Assembly (NCBI GenBank): GCA_963827165.1
Contig: CAWGZR010000005.1
Coordinates: 32,001-96,000, forward strand
Direction of reading: 5' to 3'
From: Candidatus Bathyarchaeota archaeon
GTDB taxonomy: Archaea; Thermoproteota; Bathyarchaeia; Bathyarchaeales; Bathycorpusculaceae
Length of the DNA stretch: 64,000 bases
The notes under the pieces were generated by a model, which had not been told where the DNA came from, ran no database searches, and worked only from the letters and a program-made list of their open reading frames with translations. Within the stretch, counting starts at the first letter, position 1; each line of letters opens with the position of its first letter. The position numbers and the translations under genes are program-made. Below are positions 13,519 to 38,909 of the stretch, one piece after another.

Positions 13519-13596
13519 TGGTGGGGCTGCCCGGATTTGAACCGGAGTCTATAGAGCCCAAGTCTACAAGCCTAGACCAAGCTAGCCGACAGCCCC
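13519..13596 (-). tRNA. tRNA-Pro(TGG)
   Basis: GGGGCTG/CAGCCCC acceptor stem, anticodon arm GTAGA-CTTGGGC-TCTAT, TTCAAAT T-loop, encoded CCA, no intron. Confidence 0.95.
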
Positions 13597-22531: not shown

Positions 22532-22608
22532 TGGAGCCTCGAGCGGGCTTCGGTCCCGCGGCCTGCTGCTTACGAGGCAGCCGCTCTACTAGGCTGAGCC
22601 ATCGAGGC
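22532..22608 (-). tRNA. tRNA-Thr(CGT) with atypical D and T loops
   Basis: Perfect stems GCCTCGA/TCGAGGC and GCTGC-CTCGTAA-GCAGC; T-loop ACCGAAG; encoded CCA. Confidence 0.9.
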
Positions 22609-24620: not shown

Positions 24621-24977
24621 TTAGACAATCAAATGCAGTAAGACAAGAATGTTGTTTACAACAACAACGGCGGTGAACAATACGATAGTGAAGTATGCGA
24701 TTCTTAAGGTTTTCAGGGCAATTTTGAACGAGTTCGAGCTAGGATCAAATACCCGCATTAAGATCTTCCTCGCCAAAACAAAAATCAGTCCCACCACAAC
24801 GGTAACTGTTAACTTTACAATTACGAAACCTGACAGGTTAGAGCTCACTAACCCTGCAAGGAATGGATTTAACTCCTGAGTGCCAAAAAACAAAGCGCCG
24901 ACAACCGTAGTTAAACAATCCATTGATCCCATAAAAATCAGAAACAAGCAACTCGATACAGTTCGGGAACTCTGCAA
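24621..24977 (-). CDS. DUF5658-like membrane protein
   Basis: DCLTT..G....ELNP motif with hydrophobic helices. Confidence 0.7.
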   Translation of the reverse strand: MQSSRTVSSCLFLIFMGSMDCLTTVVGALFFGTQELNPFLAGLVSSNLSGFVIVKLTVTVVVGLIFVLARKILMRVFDPSSNSFKIALKTLRIAYFTIVLFTAVVVVNNILVLLHLIV

Positions 24978-25212
24978 AACTTTCAGCTCCTTTTCGATTA
25001 AAAACTAAGCTACAAGTTTTCAAGTAAGGATTTAGCGAAAAGCAAAGGTTGCCAAAATCCAGTTGTTTTATGTTATAGACTTTGAAGGCTTGTAGTTTCC
25101 AAAGTAACTAATGTTTGAATGAGTTTTTATATGTTCACTACTTTGAGGGAGGCAATAGGGTGGAATGGGTAACTTAAAAACTTTACAAGCTAAGCCCGTT
25201 TTGCAACTCTGG

Positions 25213-25617
25213 TCAGATTAAAACCCTTTTAATTATGGCTGAGTGATTCGCGTTTTTCTCCATGAACACGCTTATCTTGTTTTCACCAATCTTCATAAAA
25301 AGCACTTTGAGGCTGCTACCTTCAACTAAAGCACTTTCAATTTCAGCAACGCTAATTTGTTTTGCAATTTCCACACTGGATTGATCCAGTTGATAAGAAA
25401 AAAGCGCGTACTGACTAATTTTATCGTCTTCCGCCAAATCTAGCACGGCTGAAACGTTGCTTCTTATTATGTAGCCTAAAACCCCGTCCAGCTTGCGTAT
25501 TTCAACTAGGCTGGCGCCTAAACTTGCAAAAGCGGGATCTTCACTGTCCGCAGTTGTTACGGCGACAACATCGGTCAATGCTGTTTCCGTGTGGTTGGCA
25601 ATTGCGTTCTTTGTCAA
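25213..25617 (-). CDS. Roadblock/LC7 (MglB-like) domain protein
   Basis: LVEIRKLDGVLGYII...IESALVEGSSLKVLFMKIGENKISVF roadblock pattern. Confidence 0.8.
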   Translation of the reverse strand: MTKNAIANHTETALTDVVAVTTADSEDPAFASLGASLVEIRKLDGVLGYIIRSNVSAVLDLAEDDKISQYALFSYQLDQSSVEIAKQISVAEIESALVEGSSLKVLFMKIGENKISVFMEKNANHSAIIKRVLI

Positions 25618-26438
25618 CTTTGCTCCTCCAGCACCACGGGTATGACAGGTTTTACCATCACAAGTTTGCCATCGCCTGTTCGCAAAGTCTGCAGGATCCT
25701 TTCGGGAATCTGAATAATCCCCTTAGCTTTGCCGTCTGCCTCTCTAATGGGCCTAAACTTGCACATCGCAGATTTACCCTCTAAGGTTTCAATGTTCACC
25801 AGCAAAATCTGGGTATCGCCGTAGAGATCACTCCATTTGCCGACAACGTCAGCATCAACACGCACCACATCTGAAGCAACCAACAACCCTCCGATCTTCT
25901 CCACCATAAACTGGTTAACAGGCGGCTTGGGAAAAACACGTTCGGAAGAAACCGTGGGCACAACAGAAATCTGCTCAGCAGGCGCGGGTTCCTGAGGCAA
26001 CTGAACGACCGCTTTATCCGAGTTAACTTCAGGTTGGCCAGGATCAATTACTTGGCTGTCGGATTCTGCAGGAGATGTTTGATCTAATAGTTTTATGAAG
26101 GTTGGCACGATAACGCAGGCTAAGGCTTTGATCATTTTTTCGTCTGCCGCCCGTGATGAAACGATTGCTAAGTAACGGCTGTGTGTAGATGTGATGCCAA
26201 TCTGTGTGCTTACGCCGAGGATGGTCAGGTTTTCTACGCCACCCATGAAAGTGGCTCGGGTTGCGATTTCGTCGTATGCTTGAACCATTCTTTTGGCTCG
26301 TTCTGCAGCGACAAATTCTTCGTCGCCGGCTAGGATTTCTCCGTCTTTTGTAAAAATGGCAGCTTGGGTTAGCTCCGGGCTAATGTTTTTAAATTCGCCT
26401 AAAATTGTCTGCAGCGGTTTTGTCGAGGCTTCGATCAC
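25614..26438 (-). CDS. Roadblock-like domain + Pro/Glu linker + double-psi beta-barrel-like (Cdc48/VAT-N-like) domain
   Basis: N-terminal AAIFTKDGEILA roadblock pattern; C-terminal VVRVD...KGIIQIPERILQTLRTGDGKLVMVKP. Confidence 0.65.
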   Translation of the reverse strand: MIEASTKPLQTILGEFKNISPELTQAAIFTKDGEILAGDEEFVAAERAKRMVQAYDEIATRATFMGGVENLTILGVSTQIGITSTHSRYLAIVSSRAADEKMIKALACVIVPTFIKLLDQTSPAESDSQVIDPGQPEVNSDKAVVQLPQEPAPAEQISVVPTVSSERVFPKPPVNQFMVEKIGGLLVASDVVRVDADVVGKWSDLYGDTQILLVNIETLEGKSAMCKFRPIREADGKAKGIIQIPERILQTLRTGDGKLVMVKPVIPVVLEEQS

Positions 26439-26458
26439 CTTTGCTGCCAGCCTCCAAT

Positions 26459-26884
26459 TTAAGTTATCTTGAATAGTATTCGCTCTGGGATGCCTTCGTC
26501 CTGCAGCACAAGGTATTTGAGGCCTTCTGTGTCTCCGAGTTGGTCAAGCCATTTGAGAGCTTCGCGAACCTTCTGCAAAACAAGTAGCCTCTCTTGATAA
26601 CTGCGAACTACTGCCTCTATTGCAGTTAACTCGTGGAACGCGTTGGCGTCTAACACGATGTTTAGGGTGCCGACTGTGATTTCGCTGGGGTTCTCCGTTG
26701 ATGCTTTTTTGCCTGCTAGTTTCATGACAACTTCGCGGACTTTCTTTGATTTTTCAGCTAACGTGCGGATTTCATCCAGCCGTCGCAGATACTCGCCCAA
26801 AACGCTTTTTGTTTCGGACAGCTCCTTATCCAGGGCGTCGGCTATTGCTTGTGCGGAATTGTATTCTTGTATTTGAGTTACCAT
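26459..26884 (-). CDS. Coiled-coil hairpin protein (prefoldin-like topology), unknown function
   Basis: Two long amphipathic helices separated by a short beta hairpin (EITVGTLNIVL), with a C-terminal beta hairpin. Confidence 0.7.
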   Translation of the reverse strand: MVTQIQEYNSAQAIADALDKELSETKSVLGEYLRRLDEIRTLAEKSKKVREVVMKLAGKKASTENPSEITVGTLNIVLDANAFHELTAIEAVVRSYQERLLVLQKVREALKWLDQLGDTEGLKYLVLQDEGIPERILFKIT

Positions 26885-26981
26885 ACTTTTTTACCCTCCA
26901 AGAGGAAACGAAAGAGAAAAGGAAAAAGGTGGTGATGCAAATTTCACCTTACCCCCGAAATTTCAAATCAAACTTGTTTGC

Positions 26982-27491
26982 TTAAGGTCCGTTGTATGAA
27001 GCTGAAGTTGTGATCGTGTTGCCTTTTGAAGTCATCAATGCTATCGTGTACTGCGCGCTGTTAACGAATGAAGTCGCGGTTGCAGGCAAAGTTATGTAAA
27101 CGTCTACTGAAGTGCCTTTAGCAATTGGTAGCTGTCCTTTAGATAAAAGGCTTGTAGCGGTGGTGCCACTGAGATATCCTTCGGCTATTTTTGCGGTATT
27201 TCCATCTATAGTTACTGAAGATATGGTTACTGTTGCGGAGCCTGTGTTTTGAATGGTTACGATACCTGCAGAAGTTGTGCCGCCTGTGAGGTTGGTTGGA
27301 CTGTTATATGTGTTAGTTAAGACAGCGTTGGTTACTTTTGCTTGTTCAGAGTTTCCCATGAATCCGATAGTTAATGCTCCCATCCATGCTGCGACGACGA
27401 CGCTGACTGCTACGGTTACAGCGATTAGTATGATTGTTGCTATTACGGGGCTTAGTGCTTTTGCGCTTTTCCTAAATTTCCTGAAATTCAT
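26982..27491 (-). CDS. Archaeal type IV pilin
   Basis: Class III signal peptide KSAKA/LSPVIATIILIAVTVAV; AGGAGG RBS before ATG at 27491; IQNTGS motif. Confidence 0.92.
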   Translation of the reverse strand: MNFRKFRKSAKALSPVIATIILIAVTVAVSVVVAAWMGALTIGFMGNSEQAKVTNAVLTNTYNSPTNLTGGTTSAGIVTIQNTGSATVTISSVTIDGNTAKIAEGYLSGTTATSLLSKGQLPIAKGTSVDVYITLPATATSFVNSAQYTIALMTSKGNTITTSASYNGP

Positions 27492-27708
27492 TTGTTTTTG
27501 TACCCTCCTTGGGTTAAATATACGTTCCACGAACAAAGCTAATAAATATTATGACTTAATACACAATATTATAGATGTGTCGAGCACAACTACACCAAGT
27601 CGAACTTCAAAGTAAAATTTACCCAGTTGGCTGGCCCTGCTGACCGCTGGATGTTGAGTTTGTGAAAAAGATATTGGGCGATTTCAAAAAACTTTTGGAG
27701 TTTTCGGG

Positions 27709-28041
27709 TTAGGATTCTAGTTCGTCGAAGAATCCGAGCAGCAGTTTGGCTACTTTTTCGCCGAGTTCCGTTTTTAGGTAGTATTTCTTGAGTGGGTCGA
27801 TTCGTTCGCTTTTGGCTAGCCCTAGCGATTCGATTTCGATCATTCTTGCCCTAAATGTTCCGTCGCTTAGTGTAAGTTTGTTTTTGCGCATGAAGTCTTT
27901 GGCTTCTTTCCATTTGCCGCGTCCCGCATAGAGAAGGAACAGGCAGTCGATTGCGTGGTCTTTTTCAAGCATGGTTTTGACGGCGGACAGTTTGGGGTCT
28001 GTCAAGATGTGCTTGATTTTATCGTCCTCGTTTTTTGCCAT
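27709..28041 (-). CDS. wHTH transcriptional regulator
   Basis: LSDGTFRARMIEIESLGL...YLKTELGEKV wHTH. Confidence 0.75.
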   Translation of the reverse strand: MAKNEDDKIKHILTDPKLSAVKTMLEKDHAIDCLFLLYAGRGKWKEAKDFMRKNKLTLSDGTFRARMIEIESLGLAKSERIDPLKKYYLKTELGEKVAKLLLGFFDELES

Positions 28042-31321: not shown

Positions 31322-33127
31322 ATGACCCGAATTGCTGTGCTTAATCAGGACAAATGCAAAGTTAAAAAATGCAACCAAGTCTGCGTCAGCTACTGCCCGA
31401 TGGTTCGCAGCAGAGTGGAAGCCATTAGGGTAGAAGGAAACAAAGCGGTCATATCCGAATCTCTCTGCAGTGGCTGCGGGATCTGTGTTAAGAAATGTCC
31501 CTTCAAAGCCATCACTGTTGTCAACTTGCCCGACGAGTTAGAGAAGGATTGCAGCCACCGGTTCACCGAAAACAGCTTCAAACTTTTCCGGTTACCAATG
31601 CCATCACCCGGCACGGTGCTGGGTTTACTGGGACAGAACGGCATAGGCAAAACCACGACGCTTAAGGTTTTCTCTGGTGAGATAAAACCGAACTTGGGAA
31701 AGTTCAATGATCCGCCTGATTGGCCGGAAATAATCCAGTATTATCGGGGTTCAAGCCTTCAAGATTACTTTCAGAAAATGAGTGAGAAAAAACTCAAAGT
31801 GAGCAGCAAACCCCAGTACGTTGATAAAATTCCGAAGGCGGTCGCTGGGAAAGTGGGCGATTTGCTGGAAAAGGTTGATGAAAGAAAACAGTTAGACGCC
31901 ATCGCTGAGGAGCTTGAGCTCAAAAAAGTGTGGGACAGACCTTTAGATGTTCTTAGTGGTGGGGAACTTCAACGTGTTGCCGTCGCCGCTGCCCTCAGCC
32001 GCGACGCTGACGTTTACCTTTTTGATGAGCCATCAAGCTACCTTGACGTTAAGCAGAGGCTCGTCGTCGCAAGGGCTATTCGCAGCCTCAAGGAACAGCA
32101 GAAAACCATTATCGTTGCTGAACATGACTTAGCCATAATCGACTACTTGTCGGACCAAATCTGCTTATTCTATGGCGAACCAAGTGTCTACGGCGTCGTT
32201 TCACACGTTCACGGTACACGAACAGGCATAAACATTTACCTCCAAGGATACATCCCTGACGAGAACATAATGTTCCGAAAGGAAGCAATTGTTTTCCATG
32301 AGAAGCCGCCGACCGCAGGCTCAAACATTGGTGAACCAATTTTGAAGTGGGACCACATGGAAAAGTCGTTCAACGAATTTAAGCTCTTCATTGAGCCCGG
32401 CGAAATCAAAGTCGGCGAAATCGTTGGCATTTTGGGTCCTAACGGGATTGGAAAAACCACGTTTGTAAAGATTCTTGCTGGCATTGAGGAAACGGATAAT
32501 AAGAAAAAGCTTGGGGAGTTAACTGTAAGCTACAAACCTCAGTATATTGCCCCGGATTATGCTGGAACTGTTGCAGAATTGCTCATGAGCGTTGCCAAAG
32601 AAAACTTCACTTCAAGCTGGTACAAAACCGAGGTATCCCAACCGCTAAGACTTCAGGTTCTAATGGACAAAAACGTAATGGAACTAAGCGGTGGAGAGCT
32701 TCAAAAAGTCGCGATTGCTGCCTGCCTCAGCCGCAAAGCTGACCTGTACCTTCTTGATGAGCCAAGCGCATACTTAGACGTTGAAGAACGCTTGAACATG
32801 GCTAAGACTCTTCGACGGGTTGTTGAAGCTCACGGCATCCCAGCCTTTGTGGTTGAACACGACGTTGTAACCCAGGACTTCATCGCCGATCGTCTAATGG
32901 TTTTCAACGGTGAACCCGGCGTTAAGGGCACAGCAAATCCTCCGACCAGCCTCAGGAAAGGCATGAACACTTTCCTCAAAGAAATGGACATAACCTTCCG
33001 ACGAGACTCAGTCACAATGCGTCCCAGAGTCAACAAAGAAGACTCGCAAATGGACAAGTTCCAAAAAGGTATAGGCGAATATTATTACACCAAAACAACA
33101 AAGCCAGAACCAATAGCCAAGAAATAG
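31322..33127 (+). CDS. rli: ABCE1/Rli ribosome recycling ATPase
   Basis: N-terminal Fe-S Cys cluster, two ABC domains (GQNGIGKT, GPNGIGKT, LSGGELQ). Confidence 0.97.
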   Translation: MTRIAVLNQDKCKVKKCNQVCVSYCPMVRSRVEAIRVEGNKAVISESLCSGCGICVKKCPFKAITVVNLPDELEKDCSHRFTENSFKLFRLPMPSPGTVLGLLGQNGIGKTTTLKVFSGEIKPNLGKFNDPPDWPEIIQYYRGSSLQDYFQKMSEKKLKVSSKPQYVDKIPKAVAGKVGDLLEKVDERKQLDAIAEELELKKVWDRPLDVLSGGELQRVAVAAALSRDADVYLFDEPSSYLDVKQRLVVARAIRSLKEQQKTIIVAEHDLAIIDYLSDQICLFYGEPSVYGVVSHVHGTRTGINIYLQGYIPDENIMFRKEAIVFHEKPPTAGSNIGEPILKWDHMEKSFNEFKLFIEPGEIKVGEIVGILGPNGIGKTTFVKILAGIEETDNKKKLGELTVSYKPQYIAPDYAGTVAELLMSVAKENFTSSWYKTEVSQPLRLQVLMDKNVMELSGGELQKVAIAACLSRKADLYLLDEPSAYLDVEERLNMAKTLRRVVEAHGIPAFVVEHDVVTQDFIADRLMVFNGEPGVKGTANPPTSLRKGMNTFLKEMDITFRRDSVTMRPRVNKEDSQMDKFQKGIGEYYYTKTTKPEPIAKK

Positions 33128-37121: not shown

Positions 37122-38909
37122 ATGCCTACACGCCAACCCATCGTATGCGTCTTAGGACATGTAGACGCGGGCAAAACCTCACTTCTAGATGAACTTCGGA
37201 AAACCAGCGTTCAAGCCCGCGAAGCTGGGGGAATGACACAGCACATAGGTGCCAGCTTTTTCCCTGTTGAAACTCTCAAACAGCTTATCGGTCCTTATCT
37301 GTCTAATTTTAAAACAGGCATAGAAATTCCCGGTTTGCTCATTGTGGATACACCTGGACATGAAGCTTTTACAAATCTGCGCCGCAGGGGTGGAAGTGTC
37401 GCTGACATCGCCATCCTCGTTGTAGATGCGCTGCGGGGCTTTGAGGCACAAACCTACGAATGCATAGAAATCTTGAAGGCACGCAAAACCCCGTTCCTCG
37501 TCGCCGTTAACAAGATTGACCGTATCCCAGGCTGGACGCCGCACCAGGGTATGCCGTTTTTGCAGTCTTACGCTTCCCAATCAAGTTTTGTCCGTGAAGC
37601 TCTCGACAACCGCCTCTACACTGTCATGGGAGAGTTTAGTCGGGAAAGCTTCAAAACTGACCGCTTCGACCACATCCGCGACTTCACAATCAATGTGGCT
37701 TTAGTGCCGACAAGCGCCAAAACGGGTGAAGGCCTATCCGAACTCGTTATGGTTTTGGTCGGGTTGAGCCAGCAGTTCCTAAAGAAGCGGCTTCAAACAA
37801 CCGAAGGGGCGGCTAAAGGCTCGGTTCTCGAAGTCAAGGAAGAACCAGGTTTAGGCTTAACGTTGAACACTATCATTTACGACGGCACTCTGCATAAGGA
37901 TGACTTGATTGTTGTAGGTGGGCGCAACGGAGCAATTTCTGCTCGTGTACGTGCTATTTTGGTGCCTAAACCTCTTGACGAGATGAGGGATCCACGGGAT
38001 AAATTCACTTCTGTCGATTGTGTTTTTGCCAGCGCAGGGATTAAAATTGTTGCTCCCGATTTGGAGGGCGCTTTAGCTGGTGCACCCCTTTTCGCCGTCC
38101 CTGCGGGTGAAGACCCAGCAAAGTACTCCAAACTCATAACTGAAGAAATCGGCAGAATCAGAATCTCCAAAGAGATTGAAGGCGTTATCGTCAAAGCTGA
38201 CACTTTGGGTTCTCTCGAAGCAATGGCTGAGATCCTTAAGGCAAACAACGTCCAAGTGCGAATCGCTGATGTGGGCGACATCAGCAAACGTGACGTTATC
38301 GAGGCATCGGTCGTGAAGACGCGTGAACCTTTGGTTGGCGCCGTGTTAGCTTTTGGCGTTAAAACGTTGCCTGACGCCGAGCAAGAAGCAGCAGCAAACG
38401 GCATCCCAATTTTCAACCAACCCATAATCTACAACTTAATCGACGCATATTTGCAATGGGCGAAGAACAAGCGTGAAACCAAGAGTGAGGCCGAATTTGA
38501 TGCGCTTGTGAAGCCGGGAAAAGTAACAGTTTTGCCAAACTGCATTTTCCACAGGGCTAAACCTTTAGTTGTGGGCATTGAAGTTTTAGGCGGAAGACTA
38601 AAACCGAAATATGGACTAATACGCAAAGAAGACGGCAGCGACTTGGGCGAGGTTGACCAGATTCAGGATCAAGGAAAAGCAATAGCTGAAGCTAAAGTGG
38701 GCATGCAGGTCGCAATTTCTATGGATAAACCTATCGCGGGCAGACACGTGTTCGAGAGAGATGTGCTGTATGTTAAGGTTCCTGAGAAGGATGCACAGGC
38801 ATTGTTAACGACCCACGCGGATGACTTAACTGCGGAAGAACAGGATGTGTTGAAAGAATACATTAATATGATGCGCAAAAAAGTACCCTTCTGGGCAGGC
38901 GTCATGTAA
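37122..38909 (+). CDS. infB: Translation initiation factor aIF5B (IF-2)
   Basis: GHVDAGKT, DTPGHE, NKID. Confidence 0.97.
   Translation: MPTRQPIVCVLGHVDAGKTSLLDELRKTSVQAREAGGMTQHIGASFFPVETLKQLIGPYLSNFKTGIEIPGLLIVDTPGHEAFTNLRRRGGSVADIAILVVDALRGFEAQTYECIEILKARKTPFLVAVNKIDRIPGWTPHQGMPFLQSYASQSSFVREALDNRLYTVMGEFSRESFKTDRFDHIRDFTINVALVPTSAKTGEGLSELVMVLVGLSQQFLKKRLQTTEGAAKGSVLEVKEEPGLGLTLNTIIYDGTLHKDDLIVVGGRNGAISARVRAILVPKPLDEMRDPRDKFTSVDCVFASAGIKIVAPDLEGALAGAPLFAVPAGEDPAKYSKLITEEIGRIRISKEIEGVIVKADTLGSLEAMAEILKANNVQVRIADVGDISKRDVIEASVVKTREPLVGAVLAFGVKTLPDAEQEAAANGIPIFNQPIIYNLIDAYLQWAKNKRETKSEAEFDALVKPGKVTVLPNCIFHRAKPLVVGIEVLGGRLKPKYGLIRKEDGSDLGEVDQIQDQGKAIAEAKVGMQVAISMDKPIAGRHVFERDVLYVKVPEKDAQALLTTHADDLTAEEQDVLKEYINMMRKKVPFWAGVM

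Follow-up and report, generated by a model that had tools for sequence, protein, structure and literature searches.

Roadblock/LC7 proteins are ancient, and they are understood best where they partner small GTPases, as in MglB, Ragulator and the Asgard systems that are discussed in connection with eukaryogenesis. Proteins of this type generally dimerise, and in Ragulator a helical subunit wraps the Roadblock dimers. In Myxococcus, the MglA/MglB pair governs the polarity of type IV pili. Passages of one published study (Wuichet and Sogaard-Andersen 2014, PMC4316618) note that some systems couple two MglB genes, and that 328 MglB homologs are uncoupled from MglA, none of which had been characterised as of 2014. 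For archaea, a single sentence states that Roadblock/LC7 proteins of arCOG02603 are encoded alongside genes of type IV pili (Makarova, Koonin and Albers 2016, PMC4858521). Here we describe a locus of Candidatus Bathyarchaeota archaeon (GenBank assembly GCA_963827165.1) in which two Roadblock proteins are encoded beside a pilin. The locus is part of a stretch of 64,000 nucleotides, hereafter called the window, which spans positions 32,001 to 96,000 of contig CAWGZR010000005.1 (contig C5 of the genome in our numbering).

The genes of interest encode a 110-aa protein, a pilin, a 141-aa coiled-coil protein (CC), a 274-aa protein in which a Roadblock domain is followed by a barrel (RblDPBB) and a 134-aa stand-alone Roadblock protein (RblS). 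An earlier note, made from the letters of this DNA alone, had described five co-oriented genes on the minus strand, and the list of open reading frames (ORFs) agrees with it at every coordinate (Table 1). The tight coupling that it reported for the last three genes is likewise present, as evident by the gap of 20 nt that separates CC from RblDPBB (26439-26458) and by the 4 nt in which the RblDPBB stop and the RblS start overlap (25614-25617). GGAGG-like sites lie upstream of both CC and RblDPBB. The locus looks like an undescribed pilus accessory module because its gene set is kept together, is almost confined to genomes with one particular pilus motor and comes without a small GTPase. The reading that we prefer, and that we hold tentatively with somewhat less than even confidence, is that CC, RblDPBB and RblS form an accessory or regulatory module of the pilus driven by a C9-type ATPase (encoded on contig C9 of the same genome), and that no small GTPase is involved. 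This reading builds on the folds, the gene order, the absence of a Ras-like GTPase, and the co-occurrence and co-loss with the C9-type ATPase, all of which are observed.

Presence and absence were scored in 41 related genomes, whereas gene order was read from 27 loci in which CC stands beside RblDPBB, among them loci of families f2, f3, f6, f7 and f8. An RblDPBB match is found in 30 of the 41 genomes, one of which (G011) has only a three-barrel paralog. The pilin gene lies directly upstream of CC in 24/24 evaluable loci, three more being cut by contig ends, and RblS follows RblDPBB in 26/26, so that the linkage of the three-gene block to a pilin in other genomes, on which the earlier note had made its proposal depend, is observed. 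Even in four loci from other families (L026, L027, L031 and L032), where none of the genes that flank the window's locus is found, the order of the core is kept. In 10/10 genomes of the order that were searched for both, RblDPBB and CC are concordant in presence or absence. The conserved unit is pilin–CC–RblDPBB–RblS, kept in one order of Bathyarchaeia.

The members of this unit evolve at different rates. Identity across loci is 67-91% for CC, 38-62% for the pilin, 34-64% for RblS and 25-53% for RblDPBB; CC and the 110-aa protein evolve far slower than the other three. In two loci (L024 and L028) an intact trio stands beside a truncated or split pilin frame. Frames of the pilin or of RblDPBB are split or shortened at L024 (4860-5066, 5868-6669), L028 (7799-8294) and L018 (5748-6717), for which either assembly error or decay is possible.

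The label of class III-signal pilin proposed in the earlier note is borne out by a match to TIGR02537 at 26.9 bits (cut-off 20). The match to Pilin_N (21.6 bits) falls under its cut-off of 25.2, and the match to UpsA is weak. A GGAGGG Shine-Dalgarno-like site precedes the ATG at 27491, and a genome-wide search for the signal again picks this pilin (C5:59372-59461). It is an orphan. Its nearest paralogs in the genome are pilins encoded in the C1 pilus locus, with 33-34% identity.

The genome itself (G000; 94.5% complete) holds four T2SSE and eight T2SSF matches, all on contigs C1, C2, C3 and C9. These matches mark four ATPase/TadC loci, each with pilin-like genes of its own, and a prepilin peptidase (Peptidase_A24, C9:173744-174106) is encoded near the C9 locus. 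With this gene content, the organism is predicted to be able to make pili. The idea that the C3 locus lacks pilins and borrows the one of the module was rejected, since C3 has its own divergent pilin-like genes, whose divergence lies in the N-terminus. Beside the C3 locus stand two CheY-like receiver proteins (G000 C3:227665-230250), judged by their N-terminal sequence. The C1 pilus locus also encodes a giant pilin-like protein of 1818 aa, possibly of the adhesin type (C1:23917-29373; L099 9918-15374). Its class III signal, at the very start, differs little from the one in the 155-aa pilin encoded at C1:16362.

One tie between the module and a pilus comes from phyletic distribution. The 41 relatives were searched with two of the four ATPases, those of C1 and C9. 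Orthologs of the C9-type ATPase (at least 66% identity) are present in 29 of the 30 genomes in which RblDPBB is matched, versus only one (G032) of the 11 genomes without such a match; the one RblDPBB-bearing genome that lacks them, G031, is 76% complete. The C1-type ATPase was considered as the partner and set aside, because it tracks the module poorly: its orthologs (at least 69% identity) occur in only about 10 genomes, and only some of the module-bearing genomes have one.

Four genomes of the same genus (G006, G015, G017 and G018; 88-97% complete) have no RblDPBB, and none of them yields a T2SSE match over the Pfam cut-off; a control genome, G013, yields two. Their relationships were assessed on a tree of a single gene, aIF5B, from which G018, lacking an aIF5B match, is absent. 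On this tree, G006 and G017 group together (support 100/99) as sister to G008, and G015 groups with G014 and G005 (96/87). Therefore, because G006+G017 and G015 belong to separate clades, each next to genomes that carry the module, the module and the pilus ATPases were lost together on at least two independent occasions. In one genome (G030) the module adjoins the C9-type ATPase gene (70% identity) and a T2SSF/TadC gene, with about 300 nt between the 110-aa gene and the divergently transcribed ATPase gene. The functional tie to a type IV pilus that the earlier note had proposed thus gains support from the distribution of the ATPase, from the co-loss in four genomes of one genus and from the adjacency in G030.

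The N-terminal domain of RblDPBB, on whose Roadblock-like character the earlier note had staked its proposal in advance, does have this fold. A model built from 30 relatives gives pLDDT values of 80-90 for this domain and the element order alpha-beta-beta-alpha-beta-beta-beta-alpha. Foldseek places MglB (1j3w, 6hjm, 3t1r), a Streptomyces Roadblock protein (3kye) and Asgard Roadblock proteins (9jue, 7f8m) on top at E ~2e-6, with target-normalised TM-scores of 0.70-0.79. A comparison against 48,161 chains with VIA-align agrees, as Roadblock/MglB chains reach Z 15.4 (rmsd 2.0 over 115 residues) and 15.2, above profilins (Z 10-11) and GAF domains (~9). A profilin identity was rejected for the 274-aa protein, as its sequence profile retrieved only an Asgard profilin among solved chains, at E 1.2, and profilins rank below Roadblock proteins by fold.

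Sequence profiles point to the same family through relatives. Neither RblDPBB nor RblS of the window matches any Pfam family at E up to 1, and their genome has no match to Robl_LC7 (PF03259) at E up to 0.01. This family is matched by 5/30 relatives of RblDPBB (best E 0.0017) and by 21/31 relatives of RblS (best E 8e-6), and the profile of the RblS family finds the solved Asgard Roadblock protein 7yh1 at E 2.9e-5; on these profiles of its family the label of a stand-alone Roadblock protein stands. The two Roadblock domains of the module are too divergent to be linked to one another by sequence (hhalign E 0.077, not significant). RblDPBB has more than 354 relatives, all from Bathyarchaeia where a source is named. 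Many relatives carry the JGI title 'regulator of Ras-like GTPase activity (Roadblock/LC7/MglB family)'.

Such a title, the closeness of the fold to MglB and Asgard Roadblock structures, and the link to a type IV pilus are what one would expect under the model of the earlier note, in which the module, as an MglB-like GTPase regulator (a GTPase-activating protein or scaffold), would set the polarity of the pilus by way of a small MglA-like GTPase encoded elsewhere. The search for that GTPase gives a different picture. As the earlier note had stated, the window itself encodes neither a small GTPase nor a pilus ATPase: its only GTPase-like match, a sub-threshold one to Roc, is aIF5B (37122-38909), and the T2SSE matches are on other contigs. 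The genome as a whole has no match to Pfam Ras or Arf at E up to 0.01, and a sub-threshold SRPRB match lies within a 401-aa GTPase. A scan of the genome for G1-G3-G4 motifs yields eight ORFs of 311-595 aa, none of them of small-GTPase size.

Relatives of the organism show the same pattern. Ras/Arf matches occur in 4 of the 41 genomes (G005, G018, G033 and G038), and only G005 among these carries the module, which makes one Ras/Arf-positive genome among the 30 with an RblDPBB match. The MglB-style reading fails because a Ras-like GTPase partner is absent. As judged by these searches, a Ras-like partner acting in trans, as the earlier note had assumed, is largely refuted, and we consider its polarity model highly improbable.

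Behind the Roadblock domain, RblDPBB continues into a linker with pLDDT below 50 over residues 123-189, where alignment columns are gappy and poorly conserved, and then into a region (residues 175-265) in which two beta-beta-alpha-beta units are modelled in one chain at pLDDT 60-80. Fold-search lists for the full RblDPBB model are filled by matches to the N-terminal domain, and the barrel was compared by profile and by language model. By hhalign, against families drawn from related genomes, it matches AbrB/MazE with 92.7% probability (E 4e-7, over 27 columns) and CDC48_N with 51%. A language-model search leads to CDC48_N and Molydop_binding clusters (0.83-0.85), and Pfam CDC48_N appears in 1/30 relatives at E 0.13, with no match at threshold. 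On these grounds the C-terminal domain is taken as a cradle-loop barrel of the AbrB/Cdc48-N-like kind, for which a double-psi topology is possible. The earlier note had called it a double-psi barrel; the two repeated units and the CDC48_N match speak for that label in part, AbrB/MazE gives the better match, and a psi-loop topology is a candidate beside a swapped-hairpin one.

Among relatives of RblDPBB, one to three barrel copies stand behind the Roadblock domain. Two barrels are found in G021 and G016 (402-414 aa; L028 6001-7245, L029 5974-7182), and three in the G011 paralog (531 aa; L064 10983-12578 = L030), which has no CC, RblS or pilin alongside and whose neighbourhood includes genes for a HAMP protein and for a HAMP-PAS histidine kinase.

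These features raise the prospect that RblDPBB is a DNA-binding regulator, in which an AbrB-like barrel sits on an operator (the G-rich motif of the spacer described below, or the pilin promoter) and controls expression of the pilin or of its own gene, not assembly. The Roadblock domain would then serve for dimerisation or as a sensor, and RblS would modulate the regulator through mixed dimers. The better score of AbrB/MazE over CDC48_N fits this possibility, as do the neighbours of the three-barrel paralog. However, the AbrB match covers 27 columns, only half of the barrel, and CDC48_N-type barrels, which share the same motif, bind proteins. Furthermore, the leads from the language model are CDC48_N and Molydop_binding rather than AbrB. 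We judge a role as transcription factor to be unlikely, and the spacer between the pilin and CC genes bears on it as well.

This spacer is 69-119 nt long across loci and contains a conserved motif of ~20 nt, whose G-rich core GGGGTARGG, read by eye, is kept in 16/18 spacers. The motif persists across several families whose flanking proteins share only 25-60% identity. Its conservation in primary sequence, combined with unremarkable RNA folding, would suit an operator. Folding z-scores resemble those of shuffles in 13/14 spacers (-1.36 to +0.60), with L026 at -3.2; RNAalifold gives -0.98 kcal/mol for the spacer, and no Rfam family matches it. Across the genome, GGGGTARGG marks no regulon, because 22 sites are found where 29 are expected. 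A look-alike motif with a hairpin follows the unrelated aRF1 gene (G000 C5:895949), between convergent genes, which suggests a generic 3′-end element rather than an operator. A terminator scan places a terminator-like site at 26948-26931, in a set of predictions that as a whole does not exceed shuffles (5 found versus 3.8 +/- 1.7 expected). The spacer element is possibly a lineage-typical 3′-end element or one resembling a terminator or attenuator.

In the window, the interval from the hairpin to the CC gene shows no TATA-like box. In contigs of at least 99% identity from four peat metatranscriptomes, the pilin is present in 4/4, CC in 2/4, the 5′ half of RblDPBB in 2/4 and the 110-aa gene in 1/4; stretches that these contigs leave uncovered are uninformative, and their depths cannot rank the genes. 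The pilin transcript may be abundant and end mostly at the terminator-like element, in which case the three downstream genes would be read at a lower level.

The coiled-coil hairpin label for CC agrees with a confident model (pLDDT 89.4, pTM 0.77), in which a strand (residues 3-8), a helix of 47 residues (11-57), a hairpin (68-77), a helix of 35 residues (82-116) and a second hairpin (122-140) follow one another. VIA-align returns only generic helical hairpins (Z ~10), and Foldseek ranks a prefoldin subunit highest, at E 0.1. The CC of the window has no match to Pfam Prefoldin (PF02996, PF01920); such matches occur in 21/55 family members, weakly and below threshold (best E 2.5e-4). The proposal that CC is the prefoldin alpha of this organism was rejected, as the canonical prefoldin alpha is encoded on C10 (E 1e-26). 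Prediction of a complex of CC with RblDPBB and RblS scored 0.00 against a mark of 0.32, which is no answer and counts as evidence neither way.

The family to which CC belongs is large, with 3920 clusters at 90% identity and 127 at 50%. A search with its profile finds members in 147 of the 401 genomes from the phylum (79 of 161 genera). Sources of sequences identical to ten of its proteins include Pyrobaculum, Staphylothermus, Thermofilum, Ignisphaera, Fervidicoccus, Ca. Nitrosocaldus and Ca. Culexarchaeum. Annotation is everywhere 'hypothetical', or 'prefoldin subunit 5' (JGI; Culexarchaeia members). In 20 CC loci outside Bathyarchaeia, narrow hidden Markov models (HMMs) of the Roadblock N-domain, the barrel and RblS find no match, and in the five of these loci whose neighbours were named by Pfam, unrelated housekeeping genes surround CC. 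By its distribution, CC belongs to a Thermoproteota-wide family with no assigned function or fixed neighbours, uncharacterised in its own right. A 223-aa CC paralog in the same genome (C2:47649-48320; L063 5893-6564) sits outside any pilus locus and follows a gene for an M50-CBS site-2 protease, whose end it overlaps by 4 nt; CC paralogs of ~190 aa occur in many related genomes.

Several observations weigh against assigning the trio to the C9-type pilus. Physical linkage to pilus machinery is seen in only 1/30 genomes, and this pilus can evidently exist without the module because G032 has the ATPase and lacks the module. The co-occurrence is largely phylogenetic, amounting to about two independent events on a single-gene tree in which G018 is unplaced. 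The pilin and CC genes are set apart by a terminator-like element, and no contig in the four peat metatranscriptomes bridges these two genes, or any other two. In addition, the closest sequence relatives of the barrel are the DNA-binding AbrB/MazE domains, which fit a transcription factor equally well. Finally, CC homologs are spread across Thermoproteota beside unrelated neighbours, and 4/5 cultured species that carry CC have no Pfam Roadblock gene at all; on account of these facts, CC has a role independent of Roadblock proteins and of this pilin.

Some of these points would also be explained by a trio that serves an unrelated cytoplasmic process and has no tie to the pilin, whose adjacency would then be inherited gene order. 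The phylum-wide CC family with its varied housekeeping neighbours, the terminator-like element between pilin and CC with no bridging contig, and the loci in which the pilin is disrupted or truncated and the trio intact (L024 and L028) can all be taken this way. However, the pilin has remained adjacent in every evaluable locus, including families where every other neighbour has changed, and RblDPBB tracks a single clade of pilus ATPases. The repeated loss of the module together with all pilus ATPases, and a module that abuts the ATPase gene in G030, also speak against gene order alone. Inherited synteny with no functional tie is, in our estimation, quite unlikely, and a module that assists the C9-type pilus is the reading that we carry forward.

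How such an accessory module could act can be sketched from its parts. The two Roadblock domains would pair into a dimeric platform, from which the barrel would hang on its flexible, proline- and glutamate-rich tether to bind a target. The earlier note had proposed a heterodimer of the two Roadblock domains scaffolded by CC; both interactions are candidates, and the 4-nt overlap of the RblDPBB and RblS genes is no more than suggestive of such a pair. The module may act on pilus assembly either through the ATPase, which is an NTPase, or through the prepilin, and presumably not through a small GTPase. Koonin and Aravind are said to have put forward the older idea that Roadblock proteins regulate NTPases. 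In a more specific form, the heterodimer, the tethered barrel and CC would work together as a GTPase-independent Roadblock switch that gates this one pilus by binding directly either to its assembly ATPase or to the prepilin at its cytoplasmic leader, a proposal that we offer as speculative and rather improbable in its full detail.

The fifth gene fares differently from the other four. Its product was labelled a winged helix-turn-helix (wHTH) regulator in the earlier note, a label that found no confirmation: the profile of the 110-aa protein retrieves no solved chain at E up to 10, and weak HxlR matches appear in 4/15 relatives (best E 0.025). Identity across loci is 67-91%, with an invariant stretch LTLSDGTFR..M.E.E.LG.A, and only 14 of the 121 genomes searched from the class encode the protein. 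The gene adjoins the core in 19/23 evaluable loci, usually upstream of the pilin gene. It is not beside the core in L053, L055, L056 and L057, and in family f6, as well as in G183, it is found on a different contig. Two copies occur in G017, which has no module and no pilus ATPase. The 110-aa gene is peripheral to the invariant core, and its inclusion as a member of the module is not upheld.

The features of the locus are collected in Table 1. Housekeeping genes flank it; one side carries those for TrmY, for a DUF5658 membrane protein and for ThiL, and the opposite side those for a phosphoribosyltransferase and for Cgi121. The DUF5658 gene lies downstream of RblS, a position that is kept only within the genus.

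Table 1. Coordinates of features in the window.
Feature	Position	Strand	Remarks
110-aa protein ("wHTH")	27709-28041	minus	ORF
Pilin	26982-27491 (longest frame 26982-27536)	minus	ORF, start ATG 27491
Class III signal peptide of pilin			motif KA|LSPVIATIILIAVTVAV; hydrophobic helix; C-terminal part of the protein variable
Conserved spacer element	26901-26966	minus	motif TTGARATTnGGGGGTARGG 26947-26966; short hairpin 26931-26948; T/C-rich tract 26901-26930
CC	26459-26884	minus	ORF, 141 aa
RblDPBB	25614-26438	minus	ORF, 274 aa
Roadblock/LC7-fold N-domain of RblDPBB	26073-26438	minus	residues 1-122
Pro/Glu-rich disordered linker of RblDPBB	25929-26072	minus	residues ~123-170, length variable
C-terminal cradle-loop barrel of RblDPBB (putative)	25638-25928	minus	residues ~171-267
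RblS	25213-25617	minus	ORF, 134 aa
Terminator-like hairpin with T-run	25185-25199	minus	14 nt after RblS stop
DUF5658 membrane protein	24621-24977		downstream of RblS
tRNA gene, Pro(TGG)	13519-13596		
tRNA gene, Thr(CGT)	22532-22608		

The module offers a concrete and testable case, in that gene order and phyletic pattern connect two orphan Roadblock proteins with one type IV pilus system, in a lineage without a Ras-like GTPase. If the Roadblock switch sketched above is real, it would provide a first function for 'orphan' prokaryotic Roadblock proteins, as well as a role for the CC family, whose conservation reaches from Pyrobaculum to Bathyarchaeia. Members of Bathyarchaeia abound in peat and sediments, and to our knowledge their surface structures are essentially unstudied. 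The module pilin is present in all four peat metatranscriptomes.

Full-text searches of the literature, which left most subscription journals outside their coverage, found nothing on this layout, on a fusion of a Roadblock domain to a barrel or on pilins of Bathyarchaeia. The claim of the earlier note that no such system has been described holds for the layout; it does not hold for archaeal Roadblock proteins encoded with pilus genes, which the sentence in PMC4858521 had already noted. The string 'Bathyarchae' does not occur in that paper. The locus appears to encode a previously undescribed module that is accessory to a type IV pilus of archaea, and its parts can be set beside several known systems.

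The barrel shares with the swapped-hairpin barrels of AbrB, MazE and SpoVT and with the double-psi barrels of Cdc48/VAT-N a beta-beta-alpha-beta repeat with the motif 'G-x-I-x-I-P-x-x-h-x-x-x-L ... G-x-x-V'. Unlike those barrels, it holds two repeats in a single chain that is fused behind a Roadblock domain. CC resembles prefoldin subunits in that it forms a long helical hairpin, antiparallel and accompanied by small beta elements; its order, however, is strand-helix-hairpin-helix-hairpin, not the helix-hairpins-helix of prefoldin. The wrapping subunit of Ragulator was the analogy drawn for CC in the earlier note. Ragulator/LAMTOR and MP1-p14 also consist of pairs of divergent Roadblock proteins, and 1veu, 2zl1, 6ehp and 5x6u are among the structural matches; those complexes are eukaryotic and act on Rag GTPases, whereas in the module both the heterodimer and the binding of CC are putative.

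Loci of arCOG02603, as far as the one sentence describes them, likewise encode archaeal Roadblock proteins with type IV pilus genes. Measured against that passage alone (PMC4858521), the module stands apart by its orphan pilin, which lies away from the ATPase/TadC genes, by its fixed four-gene order and by the barrel fusion. The closest structural likeness is to MglB of Myxococcus xanthus and Thermus thermophilus, which shares the Roadblock/LC7 fold and provides the best structural matches (1j3w, 6hjm and 3t1r). Unlike MglB, the module is found without an MglA-like GTPase nearby or elsewhere in the genome, one of its two Roadblock copies is fused to a tethered barrel, and the whole is linked to a pilin gene and to CC.

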